64,000 bases of DNA, taken from assembly GCA_020632035.1 (NCBI GenBank), contig JACKGG010000001.1:45056-109055 (forward strand), read 5' to 3'. This DNA is from Candidatus Nomurabacteria bacterium. Its GTDB lineage: Bacteria > Patescibacteriota > Minisyncoccia > Phycocordibacterales > UBA918. Shown here one piece after another: positions 5,370 to 64,000 of the stretch; position 1 is the first letter of the stretch, and each line of letters opens with the position of its first letter. Made by a program: the position numbers and the translations under genes. A model generated the notes under the pieces. The model was not told the origin of the DNA and did no database searches. It worked only from the letters and a program-made list of their open reading frames with translations.

Positions 5370-6371
5370 TTATAGCTTACCCAAGCTCGCCAAGCTATTT
5401 GCCTTACAAGCTTCCAGCAACGCTTCTTTGGCTTTGTCTTCATTTTCCTTCTTACCTCCCCAGGCTTTTAAAACCGGTTCTTCGATGGCCCGAGAGAATG
5501 AATAAGTAATCGGCCAAGGTTGCTCACCCATCTTAGCGATAGCGTTCAGGTTTTTGGTAGATCGCTCAGGAGTCTGACCACCAGACAAGAACACAATACC
5601 AGCGCAGTCATGAGGAACACTCATGTGGAAGGTGCGTAAGGTAGCATTTGCTACTGCTTCTGGAGAAGTTTGCTCTGCGTACTTGTCGCCAGCTAATACC
5701 ATTGATGACTTGAGTATAAGTCCTTGCAGGTCGACCTTGTATTCAATCAGTGTACTGAAAAGAATTTGTAAGGTCTTGGTGGTAACTTTTTCTGCCAGCT
5801 CGAGTGAGTGATCTCCAGTGTGTATTACCTCTGGTTCAACTATCGGTACGATACCTGCCTCTTGAGCAATCTGGGCGTAACGGGTCATCATGACACAATT
5901 CATCTTTAGGATTTCGTCAGTTGGTGTGTCGTCTTCATCGATATTTACCACCATCCGCCATTTAGCAAAACGAGCACCGAGGTTGTAGTAGTCGGCAAAG
6001 CGTTCAGTCAGATTATCTAATCCTTGAGTTACCACCTCACCTTTGAACCCATGAATTTCTCTAGTCCCCAGATCAACTTTGATCCCAGGCACAATACCAC
6101 TAGCAGTAAGCACATCTGGAAAAGCAACTCCATCGTCGGTAAAATTACGAATCGAGGAATCATACATAATAACTCCAGACAAATACTCTTCTATTCCAGG
6201 AGCAGTAAATAAAATTTCCCGGAAGTCTTGTCGGTTTTCTGGTTCGTTTGGTAAATTGACCATAGCCAAACGAAGACCTGCAGTTCCATCACTTTCGTCG
6301 GCAGCCAAAATCCCTTTGCCTGGGGCAAGAAGAGCGGCCACTGTTTCATAAAGCTTTGTATTCTTTTTCAT
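5370..6371 (-). CDS. Fructose-bisphosphate aldolase, class I
   Basis: 333 aa. The GKGILAADES motif and overall similarity match class I (Schiff-base) FBA. Confidence 0.85.
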   Translation of the reverse strand: MKKNTKLYETVAALLAPGKGILAADESDGTAGLRLAMVNLPNEPENRQDFREILFTAPGIEEYLSGVIMYDSSIRNFTDDGVAFPDVLTASGIVPGIKVDLGTREIHGFKGEVVTQGLDNLTERFADYYNLGARFAKWRMVVNIDEDDTPTDEILKMNCVMMTRYAQIAQEAGIVPIVEPEVIHTGDHSLELAEKVTTKTLQILFSTLIEYKVDLQGLILKSSMVLAGDKYAEQTSPEAVANATLRTFHMSVPHDCAGIVFLSGGQTPERSTKNLNAIAKMGEQPWPITYSFSRAIEEPVLKAWGGKKENEDKAKEALLEACKANSLASLGKL

Positions 6372-12942: not shown

Positions 12943-13752
12943 TTAGGTAAACAACGCTACGTAACCCACCATGCTGGCCAAAATGACTCCGTACCACACA
13001 AACGGCCAAAGGGTATACTTGCGGATAAAGGCCAAGAAGAAGTGTATTACTAACAAAGCAGTAATAAAGGCAGAAGATGCTCCTATAGCAACCATCATCC
13101 AATCTACCGATGCCCCTTCTTTTAACAAGTCAATACTCATTTTAATACCTACCCCGAGAGTAATTGGTATCGCTAATAAAAAAGAAAAGCGAGAAGCTTC
13201 ATAACGTGACATACCAAGTAGCATTCCTCCAGCGATGGTTGCTCCTGAACGCGACATACCAGGAATCAGAGCCAAGGCCTGGTAAAGACCAACCATGAGA
13301 CCTTTCTTAACTGTCAGTTCACCCTGCATTGGCTGGAGGTAGAACTTCCACTCGGCGTAGAGAAAAAATATTGAAGCACATAGTAACGCTCCGGCTACAA
13401 AGAGTGGAGTACGTAGGTTTGTAGAAACGTAATCTTCAAGTAGTAGACCTAAAATTACGGCCGGGGCAGTTCCAATCACCAAAGCATATAATAAAGTAAT
13501 ATCCTTTTCGTTTACTGGTAACCGTCCTAATTTGCGCAGAAAAACTTGAATCAAGTTCCAAATATCGGCCCGAAAGTATATCATCACGGCCGCTGTGGTT
13601 GCAAAGTGGAGGACAGCATCGTAAGCCAGAGCACCACTTCCTTCTATATTTAGTAATTCATGCACTAGCACCAAATGCCCAGTCGAAGAAACTGGCAAAA
13701 ACTCTGTGATACCCTGCACTAAACCCAGTATTAAAGCGTCTACCCAATCCAT
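12943..13752 (-). CDS. uppP: Undecaprenyl-diphosphate phosphatase
   Basis: N-terminus LGLVQGITEFLPVSSTGHL, polytopic membrane protein, BacA family. Confidence 0.85.
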   Translation of the reverse strand: MDWVDALILGLVQGITEFLPVSSTGHLVLVHELLNIEGSGALAYDAVLHFATTAAVMIYFRADIWNLIQVFLRKLGRLPVNEKDITLLYALVIGTAPAVILGLLLEDYVSTNLRTPLFVAGALLCASIFFLYAEWKFYLQPMQGELTVKKGLMVGLYQALALIPGMSRSGATIAGGMLLGMSRYEASRFSFLLAIPITLGVGIKMSIDLLKEGASVDWMMVAIGASSAFITALLVIHFFLAFIRKYTLWPFVWYGVILASMVGYVALFT

Positions 13753-13917
13753 ATTCGCAGATTATAGCATAGCAGGATAGGCTATACTCTGCCCATTAAC
13801 AACTTCAACAATATTGCTCTAACGGAACCTGTAACAAAACCAATAGCGTTACCGAGGTTTTAAATTGGCCTTTGACAGGGTATACTTTTCTCATTAAGAA
13901 TAAGTAACTGTCTTGGC

Positions 13918-33694: not shown

Positions 33695-35665
33695 TTACCA
33701 TCTACCGGGTAAAGTTTTGCCTATATACTTTAATAAAGTAATGCGGCCAGAAGACTTATTGCCAGATGAGTCCTCAGCTCTCACCAACACGACTTGATTA
33801 CCCACATCAAGATCTTCCACCTTCTTAGATACACTACAGGTATTACTATTTGCACAAGTACCAACTATTGTATCATTAATCAATATCTTGATTAATGATA
33901 CACCAGTATCATCAGTCACAGACACATCTATAGTTAATAGTCCATTGGGTGGTAAAACTGATCCATTCTTTGGAGAGATAATATTTATTGATGGTGGAGT
34001 AGTATCTACAGGAATAGCGAGTGTTTGCACAACAACTTTATTTGAATGTGCTGAGTGTCCGACGCTATTAAAAGCTTTGACCTTGTAGTGATAAGTAGTG
34101 TCACTGATTAGTCCATTATCAACATAAGAAGTGACATCAGCAGAAAGAACCGCCACCTTAGTCCAACTTACTCCATCAAAAGACCTCCTTACTATATAAC
34201 CAGTTTCATCAGAAGCGTTGTCGTTCCAGGCAAGTCGCACCTCTGAAGCGGAGTTCACAGTCGCTTGTAACTTAGTCGGGGCTAGCGGGACCTCCGGAAC
34301 AACTGGTGAGATAGAGGCTCGAAAATTTGCCACAGTAGGACTTGTCATATTAAGTGTCCTTGCGTTATCAGCGTTAATAGTACCGGTTGGCTTTCCTTCA
34401 TATAAATAATCTGGACTAGAGAAATTTCTAATACGAGAGGAACCTCCACAAGCGTAAGACATTATCGTTCTAAAAGTTGAACAGTCTGTATATCCACAAG
34501 AGAAAGAGAAAATACCACAAGATGATGATTCTATATTATGATTCATACCTTGATTATGTCCCAGTTCGTGACCGAAGCTATAATAACCAGTAGCACAGTT
34601 TCTACTAACCACAGAAAAAGCATTACTCTCGAAACCAACACTTAAAGTAGCCATCCGATAAGCGACTCCGCAATTCTCGTGACTTTTTACAATTAAAACA
34701 ACTTGGTCAGCGGCATATTGATCACGAAGTCTGTGAATTTCATCCATATATCCGTCGTAAGGACTTCTCAACCTAGACAATGAAGTATTCATACTCCCGA
34801 CTTCTTCATAACCTTCTGCTTCTACCATATGGACCAGGTTGAGTGTCACGTTTATTCCACTTCGCATATAAGCATCATTTGTCTCGGTCACTGCAGTTAG
34901 TATTTTTGACTCAATCTCTGATACTCCACCTTCTTTATCTTTAGCCTCAGGTGTATAAGCTACTAAGATATCAATTGTCTCCCCTGAGTCTACAAACTGG
35001 TCAGACTCAGCACTACTAGTAACGTTTGAGCTGTCTAAATCTTTTTTATCAACCAAAATTGAATCTGACTCTGTAAACTGGTCCGGATATCCAGTATTTA
35101 TCTCTCTAATAGAGTGGACTCCATTTCCAGCATATACAAGCTCAAACGAACGATCTCTGTAGTGGACAATGCCAGAAGAAATTCCTTGACGAGAAACTAA
35201 ATAAACTCTATCCGATTCCTTACCACGTATGTGACCAACCCAAACTATCCCGCCATTCTTATCTTCTACGTACTCTCTTTCTGCAATCACAGACAGTTCA
35301 TCCGACAATTGGAGCACGAATGAAGCTGCGCTACCAAGTAACATATTGTTCACATTTACCGCCCTAGCTGAACCCAATACACCACGAGTGACAGGAGTTT
35401 CTTCTTTTTCAAACTCTGGAGTGATATCACTTCTAACCGACAAAAATTCCGGTCTGGAGCTAGGTAATTTCCTACTAATATCAAATACTGGTTCATCTGA
35501 TTTATTCACTCCAAATATAATACCTGCCACTTGTGAGACTCTACTATACAAAGAATCTGACCAGTCAGATATAAATCCAGCCTGAGCAGTCTGAGTACTA
35601 CTTAATATAAGCAACGCAACAATTGGTAATACAGTGACCCCTCTAAAACTTGTATTCTTTTTCAT
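33695..35665 (-). CDS. Secreted metzincin-like zinc metalloprotease with FN3 and Ig-like domains
   Basis: Signal peptide, then HELGHNQGMNH (the HExxHxxGxxH metzincin motif), then an FN3-like domain and a Cys-rich Ig-like C-terminal domain. Confidence 0.6.
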   Translation of the reverse strand: MKKNTSFRGVTVLPIVALLILSSTQTAQAGFISDWSDSLYSRVSQVAGIIFGVNKSDEPVFDISRKLPSSRPEFLSVRSDITPEFEKEETPVTRGVLGSARAVNVNNMLLGSAASFVLQLSDELSVIAEREYVEDKNGGIVWVGHIRGKESDRVYLVSRQGISSGIVHYRDRSFELVYAGNGVHSIREINTGYPDQFTESDSILVDKKDLDSSNVTSSAESDQFVDSGETIDILVAYTPEAKDKEGGVSEIESKILTAVTETNDAYMRSGINVTLNLVHMVEAEGYEEVGSMNTSLSRLRSPYDGYMDEIHRLRDQYAADQVVLIVKSHENCGVAYRMATLSVGFESNAFSVVSRNCATGYYSFGHELGHNQGMNHNIESSSCGIFSFSCGYTDCSTFRTIMSYACGGSSRIRNFSSPDYLYEGKPTGTINADNARTLNMTSPTVANFRASISPVVPEVPLAPTKLQATVNSASEVRLAWNDNASDETGYIVRRSFDGVSWTKVAVLSADVTSYVDNGLISDTTYHYKVKAFNSVGHSAHSNKVVVQTLAIPVDTTPPSINIISPKNGSVLPPNGLLTIDVSVTDDTGVSLIKILINDTIVGTCANSNTCSVSKKVEDLDVGNQVVLVRAEDSSGNKSSGRITLLKYIGKTLPGRW

Positions 35666-35757: not shown

Positions 35758-36429
35758 TTAAGAACTACGTCTCTTATCTATTTCAGCATGATTTCCGCTA
35801 AGAAAAACTGGGGGGACCTTAAGTTTCTTTTTTTTGTATTCAATAATCCCTGGTCGAGTATAGGTCTCACCGGTTGTCACTCTATTATCCTCGAGTGATT
35901 CATGGGTACCGAGAACACCTTTTACGTGCCTAGAAGTAGAATCAATAATGGTCAAAGCTGGCAACTCTCCACCCGTCAAAATATAATCCCCCACACTAAC
36001 TTCCTCGGCTTTAAGAGCTTTTTTTACCCGAGCATCTATTCCCTCATAGCGACCACTAATCAGTACAAGGTGATCGTACTTTTTAACATAATCTTTGGCC
36101 AGCTTCTGGGTAAAAACTTTTCCTCGAGGAGACATTATTAAGGTTTTCACTTTTTTTTGGTCTTTTTTTCTTCCCACTGCTTTTTCCCAAGCTCGCAAAA
36201 TAGGCTCAGCCTGCATCACCATACCTGGCCCGCCTCCATATGGTTTGTCGTCTATTTTGTTGTGTTTGTTCTTAGCGAAGTCGCGCGGGTTGTAATAGCT
36301 TACAGAAATTTTTTTTCCTTTAACTTTAGCCCCTTTCCCCTTCTCAGTTTTTTGCGCTCTACCAATCACACTAGCGTCCGTGTACGCCTTACAAGCTTCT
36401 GGAAAAATTGTGATTACATGAAAATTCAT
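35758..36429 (-). CDS. trmD: tRNA (guanine37-N1)-methyltransferase
   Basis: MNFHVITIFPE… and YGGGPGMV motifs. There is a lysine-rich insertion (KGKGAKVKGKK). Confidence 0.85.
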   Translation of the reverse strand: MNFHVITIFPEACKAYTDASVIGRAQKTEKGKGAKVKGKKISVSYYNPRDFAKNKHNKIDDKPYGGGPGMVMQAEPILRAWEKAVGRKKDQKKVKTLIMSPRGKVFTQKLAKDYVKKYDHLVLISGRYEGIDARVKKALKAEEVSVGDYILTGGELPALTIIDSTSRHVKGVLGTHESLEDNRVTTGETYTRPGIIEYKKKKLKVPPVFLSGNHAEIDKRRSS

Positions 36430-36438
36430 AACGATATT

Positions 36439-36861
36439 CTATAGTGGGTTTAGTTCAATATTTTTTTGAATCTGTGAATGTAATGGTGAAGGTAACGTAT
36501 CTGCAGTGAACCAACCAATTTCATCATGCTTGTCAGGCTCATTATTTACAACTTGATTTGGATCAAGTAATACTTTATATGCAAAACCAACCCAATGCGT
36601 AAGTTTACCTCCTTGTTCCCTGAAGGTTTCCCTGTGACAAAGTAATTCACAAGAGATTATATCAGCTCCATATTCTTCCTTTACTTCCCTCCGCAATCCG
36701 TCTTCAATTTTTTCACCAAATTTTAGTGCACCACCGCCAAAGTCCCATTTCCCACATTCATCACGACAATTTGAACCTCGTCTGTGCATCAAGTAATTAC
36801 CTTTTCCGTCATGGCAACGAAATCCAACTGCTACACCAATATAATCCTCTCCCTTCTTCAT
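36439..36861 (-). CDS. NUDIX hydrolase
   Basis: Canonical Nudix box GGGALKFGEKIEDGLRREVKEEYG. Confidence 0.75.
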   Translation of the reverse strand: MKKGEDYIGVAVGFRCHDGKGNYLMHRRGSNCRDECGKWDFGGGALKFGEKIEDGLRREVKEEYGADIISCELLCHRETFREQGGKLTHWVGFAYKVLLDPNQVVNNEPDKHDEIGWFTADTLPSPLHSQIQKNIELNPL

Positions 36862-36942
36862 AACAAAAGACTAGCACAAAAATCGTCAATATTTTAACTA
36901 ATAAGACATTAAACCATACCCGTATCCCTATCATTAATGATA

Positions 36943-37392
36943 TTAACTATTTATTTTCTTTGCTTTATGCATCATCGAGAACAAAAGAAAATGAGTGGGA
37001 TATTTATTTTTAAGTGCAGTAAAAGAAAAGGGATCTTCTGGTTTGGATCGAGTACGATTTGGATTGTTGTCTAAAAGCTTTTGATCTGCACGATGTTCTT
37101 TAAGCGCTTTGTCATACTCAGGAATTTGTCCAGTAAGCCATTTTCTGGTACGACTAAACGTGTTCGGACTCACACCTAATTCATAGATTATCTCCGCTTG
37201 TTTCTTACCTTCTAAAATCATTTGCGCAATAAGTAGTCTGCGCCCGATCATGACTTGCTCGCTCTCTGTTAAAACATTTGTGATAAATATTACCACTGGA
37301 TCATTTTTAGGCATGTTTCTTGCCGTCTCAAAAAGAGTTTTCATTATGAGTTTCCTTTCTTTTGATTTTATATGTTTTAGATTTTTACTCAC
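36943..37392 (-). CDS. TrpR-like YerC/YecD family DNA-binding protein
   Basis: 149 aa. The helix-turn-helix region QAEIIYELGVSPNTFSRTRKWL resembles the Trp-repressor/YerC family. Confidence 0.6.
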   Translation of the reverse strand: MSKNLKHIKSKERKLIMKTLFETARNMPKNDPVVIFITNVLTESEQVMIGRRLLIAQMILEGKKQAEIIYELGVSPNTFSRTRKWLTGQIPEYDKALKEHRADQKLLDNNPNRTRSKPEDPFSFTALKNKYPTHFLLFSMMHKAKKINS

Positions 37393-37443
37393 GATATAAC
37401 TATATCATTAATAATAGGTAAATCTTTTATCAAGTTGAATAAA

Positions 37444-37481
37444 AACTGTTTACCTATCATTAATGATAGGTAAACAGTTTA
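37444..37481. promoter_or_regulatory. Perfect 38-bp palindrome, a candidate operator of the TrpR-like gene
   Basis: AAACTGTTTACCTATCATTAATGATAGGTAAACAGTTT. A related half-copy lies at 37403–37422 and a 14-bp core palindrome TATCATTAATGATA at 36929–36942. Confidence 0.6.
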
Positions 37482-37518
37482 GTGATTTGGTGGTGTGGTG
37501 GTTTTTGCTACATAAAAA

Positions 37519-37557
37519 CATAAAAGGTGCGGGCATTAACCCGCACCTTTTATGTTT
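37519..37557 (-). terminator. Rho-independent terminator downstream of the KH-domain gene
   Basis: AAAGGTGCGGG-cattaa-CCCGCACCTTT, a perfect 11-bp stem, followed by a T-run. Confidence 0.65.
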
Positions 37558-37565
37558 TGTCCAAT

Positions 37566-37922
37566 TTATATCTTGAGGTCGTCGATGGCTTGGTCTAGTG
37601 ACTTAGTCTCCGCTACTGAAGGATTATCCTCCCGCATTGCGTCTGACATCTCTCGGTTCATTCCTTTTCCTCCTTCTGGCTCGTTAATTTTTAAATTCAC
37701 GCGAGCATCGTTCTTCATCCCTACTACTCTAAGTAAAGTTCTGATCGCTTTTGCTGTATTGCCTGAGCGACCAATAATCTTACCCATATCATCGGCGTGT
37801 ATATCAAGAGTTAGTAGTACCCCCATTTCATCTACGGTTCGATTGATTCCAACTGAATCTGGGTGATCAACGAGTGCTTTTACAAGATTTTCGAGAAACT
37901 GTTTATCTTCGTGGGTATCCAT
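37566..37922 (-). CDS. KH-domain RNA-binding protein (KhpA/YlqC-like)
   Basis: 118 aa with GxxG-containing KH_4 features (GKIIGRSGNTAKAIR). Located downstream of rpsP, as in many bacteria. Confidence 0.7.
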   Translation of the reverse strand: MDTHEDKQFLENLVKALVDHPDSVGINRTVDEMGVLLTLDIHADDMGKIIGRSGNTAKAIRTLLRVVGMKNDARVNLKINEPEGGKGMNREMSDAMREDNPSVAETKSLDQAIDDLKI

Positions 37923-38031: not shown

Positions 38032-38565
38032 CTAGTCAGCTTCTGCGTCAGCTTGAGCTAGAGAGTGTTCTGATTCTCTTTTAGTTAATTCTTCAGGGCT
38101 TTCTTCAGCTGTTTCAGAGTGATCTACTGGATCGTCCTCATCTACGACAATTTCAACTTTTGTGTCATCTTCAGTCACCTCAGTGGCTTCTGGAGTTTCA
38201 TCTGATTCTGTGGCCTCTGCAGCAGCCTTTTCTGCTTCTGCCTTAGCGGCGGCTTCTTCTTCCGCTTTTTTCACCGCTTCTTCATCGATAACAGGTGATT
38301 TCTTTGGCAGAACGTTGATTTTCTTACCCTCAATTACCTTTTGGGTAATAAGCAGATTGTGCATAGTGTCAGAAGGCTGAACACCATTAGCTATCCATTC
38401 TCGAGCTTTATCGGCATCAATAATAAAGTTCTTGGTTTTTGGATTATAAGAACCTAAGCGATCGACATGCTTATCGCTTTTTACGCCAGTTCTTTTGTCG
38501 GTCACGACAATACGATACGAAGGATCGTTCTTGCGGCCAACTCGTTGTAAACGCATCATTAACAT
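38032..38565 (-). CDS. rpsP: 30S ribosomal protein S16 with an acidic/Ala-rich C-terminal extension
   Basis: N-terminal 80 aa is typical S16 (MLMMRLQRVGRKNDPSYRIVV…). About 95 extra C-terminal residues are rich in E/A/D. Confidence 0.85.
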   Translation of the reverse strand: MLMMRLQRVGRKNDPSYRIVVTDKRTGVKSDKHVDRLGSYNPKTKNFIIDADKAREWIANGVQPSDTMHNLLITQKVIEGKKINVLPKKSPVIDEEAVKKAEEEAAAKAEAEKAAAEATESDETPEATEVTEDDTKVEIVVDEDDPVDHSETAEESPEELTKRESEHSLAQADAEAD

Positions 38566-48204: not shown

Positions 48205-48546
48205 TTATTTAGCTTCTTTTTTCTTCTTCTCTTCTTTCACTTCAACCTTTTCGACTTTCTCTTCCACTTTCTCAGCTTCTACTGGAGCAAGATCAGTTTG
48301 TCCATAATCTCCAGTCTGGGCTTGTATCGCTTCTTTCTTAGCTTGTAGTCGCTCTTCTCGAGCTTTCTTCTTAGCCGACATATCCACTACCATTCGGCCT
48401 TTGTAAAAGCCACAATCCAAACACATGTGGTGTGGACGGTGCTTTGCGCCACAGTTGCTGCATACAGCCAAAGTAGGCGCTTTTAGCGCATGATGTGAAC
48501 GACGGTTTGCGGTGTGTGCCCGCGTGTGACGCATTCGAATTACCAT
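48205..48546 (-). CDS. rpmF: 50S ribosomal protein L32 with a K/E-rich C-terminal extension
   Basis: …[37 protein letters not shown] matches the L32 zinc-ribbon core. The C-terminal ~55 aa is a KEE repeat. Confidence 0.75.
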
Positions 48547-48664
48547 AGTGGCGAAACTATAGCAGAATGGTTAAAAAAAGCAATGGTTAAGTCGTATTCA
48601 TGTCCAAAAAAAAGCGGCCTATCGAGCATCAACTCGACAGACCTATTTTGAACTTACGTTCCGT

Positions 48665-49078: not shown

Positions 49079-49678
49079 CTACAATATTTTTATATCTTTG
49101 CAATAGCTTACCCGATGGATCGGGCATTTGCCGTATTTGGCTATATTTTCTCTGTGCAACTTAGTTCCATAGCCTTTATGTACATCAAAACCATACTGAA
49201 AATACTGTCGGGCGATTTTCTTCATATATTTATCTCGTGTAACCTTGGCCACAATCGACGCTAGTCCGATTACCTTTTCTTTATCATCACCTTTTATGAT
49301 GGTTTCTTGGGAGAATTGGGATGGCGCGCGAAGCGCGCCATCTAACTTAATAAAACAATCTCCCTCATTTAATTCAAGTCTATTAATACAGCGAGCCATA
49401 GCAGTGTTTATAGCAAAAACTATCCCTTTCTCATCTATTACGGAAGAACCGACCTGGGCCACTGCAAAATCTAATTGTCGGTGGTGGCGCAACTCTTTAG
49501 CTCGATGGAAGATTGCTTCGCGATTTTCCTCCGATACTTTCTTACTATCACCCACTCCAACAACAAGCTTCCAGTCAAAACCCTTAGGAATCTTTACCAC
49601 ACCAACAGCGACCGGCCCGGCCAAAGGACCTCGGCCTGCTTCGTCTATACCAATAATCCATTTAGCTTTCATATTCAA
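49079..49678 (-). CDS. rnhB: Ribonuclease HII
   Basis: GIDEAGRGPLAGPV N-terminal motif, 199 aa. Confidence 0.85.
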   Translation of the reverse strand: MNMKAKWIIGIDEAGRGPLAGPVAVGVVKIPKGFDWKLVVGVGDSKKVSEENREAIFHRAKELRHHRQLDFAVAQVGSSVIDEKGIVFAINTAMARCINRLELNEGDCFIKLDGALRAPSQFSQETIIKGDDKEKVIGLASIVAKVTRDKYMKKIARQYFQYGFDVHKGYGTKLHRENIAKYGKCPIHRVSYCKDIKIL

Positions 49679-49758
49679 AGTATTATAGCAAACATTGACT
49701 TTTACTTAGAAATATGTATAATATTAGATAAATGCACATTTTAGTGAGGGAGGCCAAG

Positions 49759-50271: not shown

Positions 50272-50521
50272 TCCTGTCTCACAGGCACCACGACATTCCA
50301 TTTCGGAAAGTCCTCTGGTGCTCTTTTTATATTCAACCCAACACACTGAGCGAGCTCTTGACGGAAAATGCCGTTGCGGAGTAATTATATATTTGTACTG
50401 AGTTGGAGTAGTAAATTGTGACTGTTTGAGCCGAAGGCGAGTCTCACAGTTTGCGTCGTGCAAACGATACTACAAATAATGATTACGTAGCATTCTGGCA
50501 TTTTCCGCCAAGAGCGAGCGA

Positions 50522-50530
50522 TGCTATAAT
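50522..50530 (+). promoter_or_regulatory. Extended -10 promoter (TGcTATAAT) 9 nt upstream of the dnaE ATG
   Basis: TG at 50522–50523, TATAAT at 50525–50530, ATG at 50540, and no Shine-Dalgarno sequence. Probably a leaderless transcript. Confidence 0.4.
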
Positions 50531-50539
50531 GCTAAAATC

Positions 50540-53500
50540 ATGCCCGCCCCGAAACTCTCTACCAACTTTGTCCACCTACACGTGCACTCAATGTACTCAC
50601 TCTTGAATGCCGTCCCCCGCCCTTCTGAGCTAGCTGCAGCCGCAAAAGCAGACGGACAGGATGCTCTTGCCATTACCGACGCCGGTGCTCTTTACGGAGC
50701 GATAGATTTTTATAAAGCTTGTACCAAAGAAGAAATAAAACCGATCATCGGACTGGATGCTTTTCTGGCGCCTCGCACTCGCTTTGATAAAGAAGTAAAT
50801 ATAGACAAACCAAGGTCTAGACTTGTCCTTTTGGCTAAGACTTTCACCGGTTACCAAAACTTGATCAAACTTGTAACTCGTTCTAACACCGAAGGTTTCT
50901 ACTACCGCCCCCGGATTGACGAAGAACTGTTGAAAGAATTAAAAGATGACTTAGTTTGTATCATTCCCTCTTTTGCCGGTGAAGTGGCCCAAGCCATAAA
51001 AGACGTCAATCCAGAAAAAGCAACTGAGCGGCTGGACTGGTACAAAAATGTATTTGGTGATGATTGTTATTTAGAAATCTCCCACCACCCTGAAATCTTT
51101 GATCATGAAGAAATCCAAACTAAAATAAAAGCCTTAGCGAAAGAGACTAGCACTCCCCTAGTGGCTGCCCACGATGTCTACTACCTAAAACCAGAAGACA
51201 GCTTAGCACGAGAGACCATGATCAAGATTCAAAGCGGTGGAGTGGTGGACACCACCGTCGACTTTGAAAGTGGTAACAACTTTTCGTTCACAACCCAAGC
51301 ACAGATGAAAGAGTGGTTTGCCGACACTCCAGAAGCTTTAAGTAACACAGTAAAAATTGCTGAGCAATGTAATGTGGAAATAGAAATTGGTACGCACTGG
51401 TACTTCCCAGACTACAAAATAGAGAGTGGTCGCGAGTCCGACGACGAGCTTCAGGTCACTTCTTATGAGGGCGTTAAGTGGCGTGGTTTAGATATAAATG
51501 ACAAGGAAGTAAAAGAGCGTCTGGACTACGAGCTGGAGGTGATTAAAAACAAAGGTTACGCCAAGTACTTTTTGGTGGTGGGAGACCTACTGCGTGAGTC
51601 TCGCGAAAGAGGTATTTTAACCACCATTAGAGGTTCAGTGGCCGGCTCATTAACTACCTATGTACTTGGTATTACCAATGTGAACCCCTTAGAATACAAG
51701 CTTCCCTTTGAGCGTTTTCTCAATCCTGAACGTCCGTCGGCGCCCGATATCGATATGGACTTTGCCGATAATCGTCGGGATGAAATTATCGAATACGCCA
51801 AGGAAAAGTACGGTGAGGACAAGGTAGCCCAGATCGGTACCTTTGGAACCATGATGGCACGCGCGGCCGTCCGAGATGTGGCACGAGCACTTGGCTACTC
51901 TTACTCGACTGGTGACCGTATTGCCAAACTGATTCCCTTAGGTGCTCAAGGCTTCCCTATGACAATCGACCGGGCGCTTGAGATCGAACCAGACCTAGCC
52001 GAACTTTATAAAAAGGACTCCGAATCTCGAGAGGTGATTGACCTAGCTAAGCAAATAGAAGGTCGGGTTCGTCACCTTGGTGTGCACGCCGCTGGAGTGG
52101 TAATCGCTCCTGAACCCCTTAATCAATTTGTTCCGATCCAGATCGACTCCAAGTCGGGTAAATTTATTACTCAATACGAAATGCACAGCGTCGGCGAAGA
52201 CGGTGTCGGCCTTTTGAAGTTTGACTTCCTTGGTATCAAAAACCTCGCCATCCTCGCCGACGCAGTAAAACGAGTGAAGAAAATTCGGGGTGAGATTGTA
52301 GACATCGAAAATATTCCCCTCGATGACGCTAAGACTTTTAATATTTTGGCCAAAGGTGAAACCATGGGTCTCTTCCAGCTCAACGGTACCGGGATGACTT
52401 CTTTCTTAAAGCAACTCAAGCCAACCACTATCCACGACATCAACGCGATGGTGGCGCTTTATCGCCCAGGGCCAATGGAAATGATTCCAACCTACATTGA
52501 ACGTAAACATAACTCAACTTTAATCTCTTTCCTTGACCCCCGCATGGAAGATATTCTTGATCGTTCATACGGGGTTATCACCTACCAAGACGACGTGATG
52601 ATGATATCGATCAAACTGGCCGGCTACTCTTGGCTAGAAGCCGACAAACTTAGAAAAGCGATGGGTAAGAAAATTCCTGAAGTTATGGCAGCTGAGAAAG
52701 ACAAACTTTTTCAAGGACTTATAGACAATGGCATGCCTGGCAATAAAGCCGAGGAACTTTGGAAACTTATCGAACCATTTGCTGCCTATGGATTCAACAA
52801 AGCCCACGCCGCTAGCTATGGTCGAGTTGCCTATCAGACGGCTTATATGAAGGCTAATTTCCCAGTTGAATACATGTCGGCGGTGCTAACCGCCGACTCT
52901 GGTGACACCGATCGGATCTCAGATAGTATCCATGAATGCGAACGCATGGGCATAGATGTGTTACCGCCCGACATAAACGAATCATTTGCTGATTTCTCAG
53001 TAGTCCCAGGTAAGCAAACAATTCGTTTTGGTCTTACCACTATAAAAAACTTTGGCGCCGGAATTGCCGAAATCATTATTGAAGACAGAAAAAAGAACGG
53101 GCCTTTTACTTCAATGCAAGATTTTCTGTCGAGGATTCATGACCGAGCCCTCAATAAAAAATCACTTGAAGCGCTAATTACTACTGGGGCTTTCGATAGC
53201 TTTAACGAACGTGGAGAGCTATTTGCCAACCTAGAAAACCTTCTCTCATTCAACCGCGAGCATGTGGCTGGAAAAGAAGCAAGTCAAGATTCACTTTTTG
53301 GTGGGATGGAGGAAGTAAATGGGCTTACTCTAGAACCAGCCGAAGCTGCCACTATGATGCAAAAACTACTTTGGGAAAAAGAGCTGCTTGGTATTTATGT
53401 TTCCGGCCATCCCTTAGACGCCCACGAAGGAGAGATTGCCAAACGCCCAACAATTAAGCAAACAAGAGAAGGCTACAAAGGAACAACCGTGGTTACTACT

Positions 53501-53746
53501 GGTTTAGTAGAAACCGTAAAGGAGCTTTTAACTAAAAAAGGCGACCGGATGGCTTTTGTAAAACTAGCCGACCAAACAGACAGTATTGAAATGGTTGCCT
53601 TCCCCGAAGCTTACGCCAGTAATAGAGAAGTACTAGAACCTGGTACCTGTGTCGCGGTAAAAGGTAAGCTCAACTTCCGCAACGATGAACCAAGTATTTT
53701 AATAGATAAAATTAAAATACTTGGTTCTAACACAGCCTCAGATTAA
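50540..53746 (+). CDS. dnaE: DNA polymerase III alpha subunit
   Basis: PHP domain N-terminus (FVHLHVHSMYSLL), polymerase core and OB fold, 1068 aa. Confidence 0.9.
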   Translation: MPAPKLSTNFVHLHVHSMYSLLNAVPRPSELAAAAKADGQDALAITDAGALYGAIDFYKACTKEEIKPIIGLDAFLAPRTRFDKEVNIDKPRSRLVLLAKTFTGYQNLIKLVTRSNTEGFYYRPRIDEELLKELKDDLVCIIPSFAGEVAQAIKDVNPEKATERLDWYKNVFGDDCYLEISHHPEIFDHEEIQTKIKALAKETSTPLVAAHDVYYLKPEDSLARETMIKIQSGGVVDTTVDFESGNNFSFTTQAQMKEWFADTPEALSNTVKIAEQCNVEIEIGTHWYFPDYKIESGRESDDELQVTSYEGVKWRGLDINDKEVKERLDYELEVIKNKGYAKYFLVVGDLLRESRERGILTTIRGSVAGSLTTYVLGITNVNPLEYKLPFERFLNPERPSAPDIDMDFADNRRDEIIEYAKEKYGEDKVAQIGTFGTMMARAAVRDVARALGYSYSTGDRIAKLIPLGAQGFPMTIDRALEIEPDLAELYKKDSESREVIDLAKQIEGRVRHLGVHAAGVVIAPEPLNQFVPIQIDSKSGKFITQYEMHSVGEDGVGLLKFDFLGIKNLAILADAVKRVKKIRGEIVDIENIPLDDAKTFNILAKGETMGLFQLNGTGMTSFLKQLKPTTIHDINAMVALYRPGPMEMIPTYIERKHNSTLISFLDPRMEDILDRSYGVITYQDDVMMISIKLAGYSWLEADKLRKAMGKKIPEVMAAEKDKLFQGLIDNGMPGNKAEELWKLIEPFAAYGFNKAHAASYGRVAYQTAYMKANFPVEYMSAVLTADSGDTDRISDSIHECERMGIDVLPPDINESFADFSVVPGKQTIRFGLTTIKNFGAGIAEIIIEDRKKNGPFTSMQDFLSRIHDRALNKKSLEALITTGAFDSFNERGELFANLENLLSFNREHVAGKEASQDSLFGGMEEVNGLTLEPAEAATMMQKLLWEKELLGIYVSGHPLDAHEGEIAKRPTIKQTREGYKGTTVVTTGLVETVKELLTKKGDRMAFVKLADQTDSIEMVAFPEAYASNREVLEPGTCVAVKGKLNFRNDEPSILIDKIKILGSNTASD

Positions 53747-63591: not shown

Positions 63592-64000
63592 CTAAATATC
63601 CACGTTAGCCGTCTTGGCGTTACTCTGAATAAATGATTTTCTATTTGGCACATCGGTACCCATTAAGATATCAAAGACTTTATCGGCTTGGATCACGTCG
63701 TCAATCTGAACCTGCTTTAGAATACGATTCTCAATGTTCATGGTAGTTTCACCAAGCTCTTCGGCATTCATTTCTCCCAAACCTTTGTATCGCTGTATTC
63801 TCACCCGACTTGATTTCTTCACTGACTCCACACCTTCATCCTCTTCTTCATTCCCCTCTTCTGTTGCATCTAGGTCGTCCGACACTTCTTCGCCCATGTC
63901 TTTCAATATAGCAAACTTCTCATCATCATCAAAAGCGTAACGAATGTCTTTCCCTTTTTGGATCTTGTACAGTGGCGGCAAGGCAATGTATACGAAACCA
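63592..64000 (-). CDS. gyrB: DNA gyrase / type IIA topoisomerase subunit B, C-terminal part; the gene continues past the window end
   Basis: …QRYKGLGEMNAEELGETTMNIENRILKQVQIDDVIQADKVFDILMGTDVPNRKSFIQSNA matches the conserved GyrB/ParE C-terminus. The reading frame is open to the window edge. Confidence 0.7.
   Translation of the reverse strand, partial: GFVYIALPPLYKIQKGKDIRYAFDDDEKFAILKDMGEEVSDDLDATEEGNEEEDEGVESVKKSSRVRIQRYKGLGEMNAEELGETTMNIENRILKQVQIDDVIQADKVFDILMGTDVPNRKSFIQSNAKTANVDI

Follow-up and report, generated by a model that had tools for sequence, protein, structure and literature searches.

Within a 64,000-nucleotide stretch of contig JACKGG010000001.1 from Candidatus Nomurabacteria bacterium (hereafter the window), a gene for a small helix-turn-helix protein of the TrpR family is enclosed by three copies of a palindromic dyad, TATCAT-NN-ATGATA, and we consider it very probable that these dyads are the cognate operators of the protein encoded between them, that the gene represses itself and that the flanking copies serve as auxiliary sites. 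An earlier note on this DNA had proposed an autoregulatory operator set, possibly acting through looping, and comparison with related loci lends this proposal strong support. The sites exist and are non-random, they are linked to orthologs of the gene, they co-vary with the recognition helix of the adjacent protein, and the copy nearest the gene overlaps a -10-like element. To our knowledge, almost nothing is known of transcription control in the Patescibacteria (Candidate Phyla Radiation), and in the literature searched TrpR and Patescibacteria were not found mentioned together.

Palindromic sites in the window

The gene (36943..37392, minus strand) is read from GTG 37392 and encodes 149 amino acids with a match to Pfam PF01371. 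Farthest upstream of it lies the predicted distal operator, a perfect 38-bp palindrome (AAACTGTTTACCTATCATTAATGATAGGTAAACAGTTT, 37443..37480, 31.9 bits by the weight matrix described below) whose two arms of 19 nt (37443-37461 and 37462-37480) are 100% complementary with no gap between them, and whose core, TATCATTAATGATA at 37455-37468, is centred 69.5 bp 5' of the start codon. The palindrome had been recognised as perfect in the earlier note, with coordinates (37444-37481) that are one too high, and its distance to the start codon, given there as 52 bp, comes to 50 bases when counted from GTG 37392. The half-site copy reported at 37403-37422 is present as TATCATTAATAATAGGTAAA, which is 95% complementary to 37449-37468; it falls within the predicted promoter-proximal operator (37397..37422, 17.9 bits), made up of the core TATCATTAATAATA at 37403-37416, with one mismatch, and a GGTAAA flank. 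From the coordinates, this proximal dyad is centred at -17.5 relative to the start codon and spans -24 to -11. The predicted downstream operator, also rightly described before, is a perfect copy of the 14-bp core TATCATTAATGATA (36929..36942, 24.0 bits) that directly follows the TAA stop codon (36943-36945) and occupies -81 to -68 relative to the start of the next gene, a NUDIX hydrolase gene, at 36861. The site centres are spaced by 52 bp and by about 474-526 bp, and none of the three sites is assigned a strand.

When up to two mismatches are allowed, the core has four matches in the 64 kb against 0.38 expected, none of 100 shuffles contains four, and the fourth match (45730, two mismatches) lies within an open reading frame (ORF). 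A 26-bp weight matrix derived from 69 sites at related loci was scanned over the 64-kb window and 30 shuffles of it; in the window it finds no site beyond the three local copies, the next best score being 4.8 bits and the shuffle maximum 12.6. The three copies are therefore real, non-random and limited within the 64 kb to the TrpR-like locus. Chance, or a dispersed repeat like the repetitive extragenic palindromic (REP) sequences and bacterial interspersed mosaic elements, was rejected on the shuffles, the weight-matrix scan and a scan of the related loci, and this excludes the outcome that the earlier note had named as fatal to its proposal, a REP-like repeat unlinked to yerC orthologs: the three copies all lie at one locus. 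By eye the dyad also resembles a Fur box (TGATA/TATCA), a candidate that was likewise rejected, since at up to three mismatches no match to the 7-1-7 sequence TGATAATnATTATCA overlaps the dyads and its matches in the window are at chance level.

Conservation of the dyad and its match to the recognition helix

Loci encoding relatives of the window protein (numbered L001, L002 and so on; among them nine genome loci and 17 metagenome loci) carry the same arrangement. At all nine genome loci, where the proteins are 46-66% identical to that of the window, perfect TATCAT-NN-ATGATA copies lie within about 220 bp upstream, and further copies lie just 3' of the stop codon, perfect in eight loci and with one mismatch in L007. 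All 17 metagenome loci, with proteins down to 37% identity, have perfect or one-mismatch copies both upstream and downstream, and the dyad, which the earlier note had suggested seeking beside orthologs, accordingly flanks the ortholog in every related locus examined. Among these 26 loci the number of copies (1-4 upstream, 1-5 downstream) and their spacing vary. The 12 specified positions of the core are invariant across proteins 37-66% identical to the window protein, and in 23 of 25 loci the first site downstream starts at a distance of 0-25 bp from the stop codon, the window having a distance of 0 bp.

More distant homologs, at 29-39% identity, lack TATCAT-NN-ATGATA and have other palindromes on both sides of the gene, for example TATGATATATCATA, TTTGATATATCAAA, TAGTATCAT..ATGATACTA, ACACCCATATATGGGTGT and CAGTATGGTAATATGTATTACCATACTG. 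When the same 6+6 dyad was sought within 300 bp upstream and within 300 bp downstream of a gene, with ORFs from the same sequences as controls, it was present on both sides in 48 of 79 loci as against 4 of 580 control ORFs. The class of dyad goes with the recognition helix of the protein: (S/A/G)PNT helices pair with the TATCAT-NN-ATGATA class, VGxDT helices with TATGATATATCATA or TTTGATATATCAAA, and other helices with sites of the ATACT....AGTAT type. Of the in-silico evidence at hand, this co-variation of helix and dyad speaks most strongly for a reading of the palindromes by the adjacent protein.

At L009 (2944-2986 and 3464-3506), and likewise at L012, the upstream and downstream dyad pairs are near-identical composite units (TCTACC-site ... 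site-GGTAGA), which points to a duplication of one side onto the other or to gene conversion between them.

Operator and promoter

A putative extended -10 element read from the sequence (TGATATAGT, 37399..37407, minus strand) ends 6 nt before GTG 37392 and overlaps the right half of the proximal operator. The centre at -17.5 recurs in L001, L002, L008, L013, L014 and L023, and in six of the seven loci that have it, the window included, ATGATA and the next four bases form TGnTAnnnT, an element that stops 6 nt short of the start codon (TGATATAGT in the window, TGATATAAT in L002, TGATATGAT in L001). The same motif (consensus TGCTATAAT) stands 4-9 nt before the start of 13 of the 51 long ORFs of the window, its background frequency being 0.0011 per nt; examples precede the ORFs at 12943-13761(-), 48205-48570(-), 49079-49705(-), 50483-53746(+) and 63592-63999(-). 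This suggests that leaderless or near-leaderless mRNAs made from extended -10 promoters are usual for the first genes of operons in this genome. Because its own element ends 6 nt before the start codon, the transcript of the TrpR-like gene is probably leaderless, and the overlap of the proximal operator with the -10 element would imply negative autoregulation. A predicted operator overlapping the gene's own putative promoter is found here in silico, a layout that is classical for negative autoregulation. Autoregulation is a trait of the family: in Escherichia coli, trpR represses itself through an operator that overlaps its promoter, and a candidate site for HisR, the TrpR-fold histidine repressor of Firmicutes, precedes hisR in about half of genomes (PMC9413887), for which negative autoregulation is predicted.

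The TrpR-like protein and its subfamily

Pfam Trp_repressor (PF01371) matches residues 2-84 of the 133-residue form of the protein at 41.5 bits against a cut-off of 27, and is present in all homologs checked. The earlier note had assigned the gene to the YerC/YecD family, an assignment that does not hold by the NCBIfam model TIGR02531, which scores 21.9 bits where 42.2 are needed; the TrpR model TIGR01321 (22.9 bits, cut-off 67.25) is missed as well. The note's start codon, GTG 37392, is borne out by the homologs, which begin with ATG exactly at its position. An alternative ATG at 37344, preceded by an AGGAAA ribosome-binding site, would yield the 133-residue form and corresponds to Ile in the closest genome relative. 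For these two reasons we prefer the 149-residue reading.

The homologs are 143-151 residues long and share an N-terminus, MSK..KH.K..ERK, and a C-terminal motif, PFSF..LKKKYP.HFLLF; the window protein, with recognition helix VSPNTFSRTRKWL, carries about 55 additional C-terminal residues. An AlphaFold2 model is all-helical (predicted local distance difference test score, pLDDT, 77), with TrpR-like helices followed by three C-terminal helices at 93-108, 124-130 and 136-148. In a family-profile search of solved structures the nearest are 3KOR, 3G1C and 3FRW, proteins of HisR/YerC type (E 5e-9 to 5e-8), then E. coli TrpR, 1TRR being among the matches. Foldseek against the PDB also ranks TrpR-like structures first, with weak E-values (0.17-1.5); the model is a monomer, and proteins of this fold form intertwined dimers. 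Residues T42, G50, R52 and T78 are invariant among the homologs and R81 nearly so; they align with T44, G52, R54, T81 and R84 of TrpR, and because these equivalents of the TrpR pocket are conserved, a small-molecule co-repressor is likely.

When 1.84 billion representative proteins were searched with the profile, 357 clusters (50% identity) were obtained at E<=1e-10, and wherever the sources name the organisms these are Patescibacteria (Kaiserbacteria, Nomurabacteria, Paceibacteria, Minisyncoccia, Saccharibacteria). The window protein is a member of a large, mainly patescibacterial subfamily separate from YerC/HisR and from TrpR proper. Two proteins, P0137 (740 residues) and P0164 (640 residues), contain 12 and 8 repeats of the subfamily's helix-turn-helix region, and at L019 (308-538 and 703-1140) and L066 (557-979 and 3334-3753) two TrpR-like paralogs lie close together. 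The supplement of a study of essentiality in cultivated Saccharibacteria (PMC10633639) lists no TrpR-like regulator, 'TrpR' occurring there only as the fold label of DnaA domain IV and in a TrpRS entry.

Role of the downstream copies

The arrangement of sites invites several other readings. The copy at 36929-36942 might be mainly an operator of the next gene, in which case the protein would control NUDIX and trmD and there would be no bracket around the regulator; the site stands 68 bp before the NUDIX start with no terminator between them, and trmD, which comes next at L005 and L008, has the same orientation there. Against this, the NUDIX gene appears to have a promoter of its own, a putative extended -10 element (TGCTAGTCT, 36868..36876, minus strand, 6 nt before ATG 36861) that the downstream operator, spanning -81 to -68, does not overlap. 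Many other loci, moreover, have a convergent downstream gene (rpoC, a kinase, ribokinase) or a terminator after the sites, and what is conserved is the spacing between the sites and the stop codon of the regulator itself. We regard this reading as quite unlikely. Across the loci the neighbours include khpA and trmD, dnaG and a convergent rpoC, a rhodanese-like gene, uridine monophosphate kinase, transketolase and ribokinase, aminoacyl-tRNA synthetases and UvrA, and at 21 loci other than the window they are unrelated housekeeping genes; a conserved target gene next door was rejected on this variety. Because the neighbours vary so widely and the downstream gene is often convergent, we read the downstream copies as part of the regulator gene's own bracket and not as operators of a conserved target.

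A second possibility is that the unit of site, gene and site is a small mobile or selfish cassette with the palindromes as its recombination ends, as might be suspected from like palindromes bracketing a gene found in many genomic contexts, with tandem paralogs in some genomes. Yet no transposase or integrase is adjacent, the window holds one copy of the unit, each side carries 1-5 sites at variable spacing, and the outer copies show no target-site duplication. The khpA-trmD context is common to the window, L001, L005 and L008 (46-66% identity), and the dnaG-rpoC context to L002, L004, L009, L012 and L023, which points to long vertical inheritance. IMG/VR viral contigs contain no relatives of the protein, on which ground a phage or mobile origin was rejected, and we give the cassette hardly any credence.

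The third possibility concerns a protein that organises DNA, its sites clustered at its own gene in the manner of the centromere- or anchor-like ParB-parS systems. The palindromes are very strongly conserved, they occur 3' of the gene as parS or sopC sites do, and almost none lies away from the gene in about 390 kb, a sample that is a small part of each genome. Such a role is nonetheless very improbable: no gene for a ParA-type ATPase is adjacent in the window or at the 21 other loci, the exact overlap of the dyad centred at -17.5 with the -10 element points to promoter control, and the ligand-sensing residues of the TrpR pocket are conserved.

Copies away from the gene are few. Over the 324 kb of the related loci at distances above 450 bp from the gene, the core specific to each locus turns up only four more times: between trpS and an aspS/asnS gene, in a hairpin resembling a terminator, past the next gene and beside a tandem paralog. 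There may be a small distant regulon. The first of these copies (TGATATGATATATCA, L021 8509-8523) lies between the stop codon of the tryptophanyl-tRNA synthetase gene and an aspS/asnS-type start, 1.5 kb from the TrpR-like gene, and is the only hint of a possible distant target. At L022, whose own TrpR-like gene uses TTTGATATATCAAA, perfect TATCATATATGATA cores at 6094 and 12878 lie in hairpins with an A-run on one side and a T-run on the other, and the one at 6094 follows a gene read as recR; the two cores may serve a second paralog whose gene is at another place.

Inverted repeats beyond the core

The perfect inverted repeat carries on outside the 14-bp core, and in this outer part the copies of one genome differ in sequence. 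In 23 of 82 sites the repeat runs at least 7 bp past the core, some reaching a total of 46-50 bp. Within 330 bp of the gene, the density of perfect palindromes is about 11-13 times that in the rest of the same loci, whether the arms are required to measure at least 10, 14 or 18 bp. A test for G:U wobble pairs, by which an RNA hairpin may be told from a DNA palindrome, yielded just five mismatched pairs, the arms being perfect and then ending abruptly. In the window, the RNA of the distal palindrome forms a 17-pair A+T-rich stem (-22.5 kcal/mol, z -8.2) followed by UUUUUAUU, and the minus strand after it reads TTTTTATT, so that the palindrome also resembles a terminator; a terminator scan requiring at least three G-C pairs did not report it. 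Neither of the other two copies, proximal or downstream, folds (z -0.66 and +0.62, respectively).

These features bear on the alternative that the palindromes act mainly as nucleic-acid structures, be it as DNA cruciforms or as RNA hairpins by which transcripts are ended or stabilised, and that their link to the gene reflects transcript boundaries. The stable hairpin with its UUUUUAUU tail, the arms that differ between copies while each remains perfectly self-complementary, the roughly 11-fold enrichment of long palindromes beside the gene, and the succession of A-run, hairpin and T-run in several relatives (for example upstream at L001 and downstream at L037, L056 and L063) are all what such a role would predict. 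Structural stems, however, would not be expected to keep an invariant core across proteins 37-66% identical or to switch class with the recognition helix. Two of the three copies in the window do not fold, upstream copies would lie outside the mRNA if it is leaderless, and a search of Rfam at E<=1 gave nothing relevant for the palindromes, so that a known RNA family was rejected. T-rich tails follow no more than 19 of the family's 118 long palindromes; termination therefore does not account in general for the long arms, and the terminator was rejected as their general role. A mainly structural role is in our judgement unlikely; it could be a secondary function of some copies. As to the arms themselves, the formation of hairpins or cruciforms may be functional, or else template-switch correction, favoured by protein bound tightly at the site, may keep lengthening the palindromes.

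Proposed mechanism

In the explanation that we favour, self-repression through cognate operators, a dimer of the protein would read TATCAT-NN-ATGATA through the recognition helix VSPNTFSR, and when bound to the proximal copy (37403-37416) it would exclude RNA polymerase, the gene thereby repressing itself. The distal palindrome and the copy abutting the stop codon would be auxiliary operators bracketing the gene; they would raise local occupancy and probably strengthen the repression, through cooperativity of binding or a DNA loop spanning the gene of roughly 450 bp. The flanking copies may in addition insulate the gene from its neighbours, including the strongly expressed ribosomal-protein operon around it, and the hairpin and U-tract of the distal copy could stop residual read-through from khpA.

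Several observations sit awkwardly with this explanation. The proximal copy of the window has one mismatch, GTG is an unusual start for a leaderless mRNA, and the internal ATG 37344 has a good ribosome-binding site. The downstream copies owe their assigned role solely to their conservation, and recognition of half-sites does not explain outer arms that differ and yet are perfectly self-complementary. Finally, neither the 64-kb window nor the approximately 324 kb of related loci shows a target other than the regulator's own gene, apart from the four stray copies.

More tentatively, and with a chance that we put well below even, the bracket may itself be the functional device. Across Patescibacteria the regulator gene would then be enclosed by its own operators, each a long perfect palindrome (up to 50 bp, with outer arms specific to the site), and the protein, which might form tetramers by means of the additional C-terminal helices, would either bind extruded cruciforms or close a loop over the entire gene, giving an insulated, self-contained autoregulatory module. 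If this is true, the bracket would be a kind of module undescribed for TrpR-family proteins, and the match of helix and dyad across lineages would amount to a readable recognition code for a major regulator of reduced genomes. In any case, the locus offers a concrete, testable protein-DNA pair for a widespread family of regulators, the natural variants of helix and dyad could reveal how the TrpR fold reads DNA, and operators that bracket the regulator's own gene are an unusual conserved architecture in a poorly understood phylum.

Surroundings of the gene

On the minus strand the order of features is rpsP (38032-38565), khpA (37566-37922, a KhpA-type KH gene and the 5' neighbour of the TrpR-like gene), a terminator, the TrpR-like gene, the NUDIX hydrolase gene (36439-36861, its 3' neighbour) and trmD (35758-36429). 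The terminator is the strong, G+C-rich intrinsic terminator of khpA (37515..37558, minus strand), an inverted repeat with an RNA fold of -32.1 kcal/mol that lies outside the operator set. The ribosomal protein S16 encoded by rpsP has 177 residues, of which the Pfam domain covers only 8-65, the remainder being a long C-terminal tail rich in Ala, Glu and Asp. Further along, at 33695-35665(-), a 656-residue protein has an N-terminal signal-like segment, a zinc-metalloprotease motif of metzincin type (HELGHNQGMNH) and a C-terminal part that resembles fibronectin-III and immunoglobulin-like repeats.

The slot between khpA and trmD, which in many bacteria holds rimM, here holds the TrpR-like gene and a variable cargo: NUDIX in the window, two other ORFs in L001 (3526-4621), and nothing in L005 and L008. 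The second of the L001 ORFs reads by eye like a candidate DnaQ-type exonuclease. Two of the contigs carry labels from outside the Patescibacteria, L002 (JBLIMJ010000003.1) that of an Acidimicrobiales metagenome-assembled genome and L003 (JBLHGD010000002.1) that of Azotimanducaceae; with 42-43% G+C and a patescibacterial context of dnaG, TrpR-like gene and rpoC, they are probably mis-binned.

Relation to known regulators

Known systems offer parallels to each part of the arrangement. The view in the earlier note that the YerC/YecD family is poorly characterised is outdated, as YerC of Firmicutes (Bacillus subtilis) is HisR, the histidine repressor, a single-domain protein of fewer than 100 residues whose 20-bp operator, cacTTTAnnnnnnTAAAgtg, lies upstream of genes for his biosynthesis or transport (PMC9413887). 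The window protein resembles it in its small all-helical TrpR fold, its closest solved relatives by profile and fold being 3KOR, 3G1C and 3FRW, and in a palindromic operator (here predicted) that for HisR, too, stands before its own gene in about half of genomes (PMC9413887). It differs in its length of 149 residues with three extra C-terminal helices, in falling below the TIGR02531 cut-off, in its dyad (TATCAT-NN-ATGATA as against cacTTTAnnnnnnTAAAgtg), in having sites 3' of the gene as well, and in its neighbours, khpA, NUDIX and trmD, with no his genes linked.

E. coli TrpR binds its operator as tandem dimers. It shares PF01371 with the window protein, in which the equivalents of T44, G52, R54, T81 and R84 are conserved, whereas the TIGR01321 cut-off is missed, the sequence and spacing of the half-sites differ, and the window protein is extended at its C-terminal end and has a gene with predicted operator copies to either side.

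Looping systems such as lac O1/O2/O3, gal OE/OI and lambda OR/OL combine a proximal operator with auxiliary operators tens to hundreds of bp away, some of them within or beyond the regulated gene, and in lambda the repressor gene cI lies between the operator sets. A promoter-proximal operator with auxiliary copies is what the TrpR-like locus has in common with them; the proteins are unrelated, and looping is here something that we infer only from the conserved arrangement. With ParB-parS and SopB-sopC the locus shares a helix-turn-helix protein and conserved palindromic sites beside or after that protein's own gene, but it lacks a ParA partner, its protein has the TrpR and not the ParB fold, and its proximal site overlaps a -10 element.

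Taken together, these comparisons lead us to predict that the window protein works as TrpR and HisR do, as a dimeric repressor of TrpR fold with a palindromic operator and autoregulation. It departs from both in belonging to a separate subfamily with a different dyad, an extra C-terminal region and sites on both sides of the gene.

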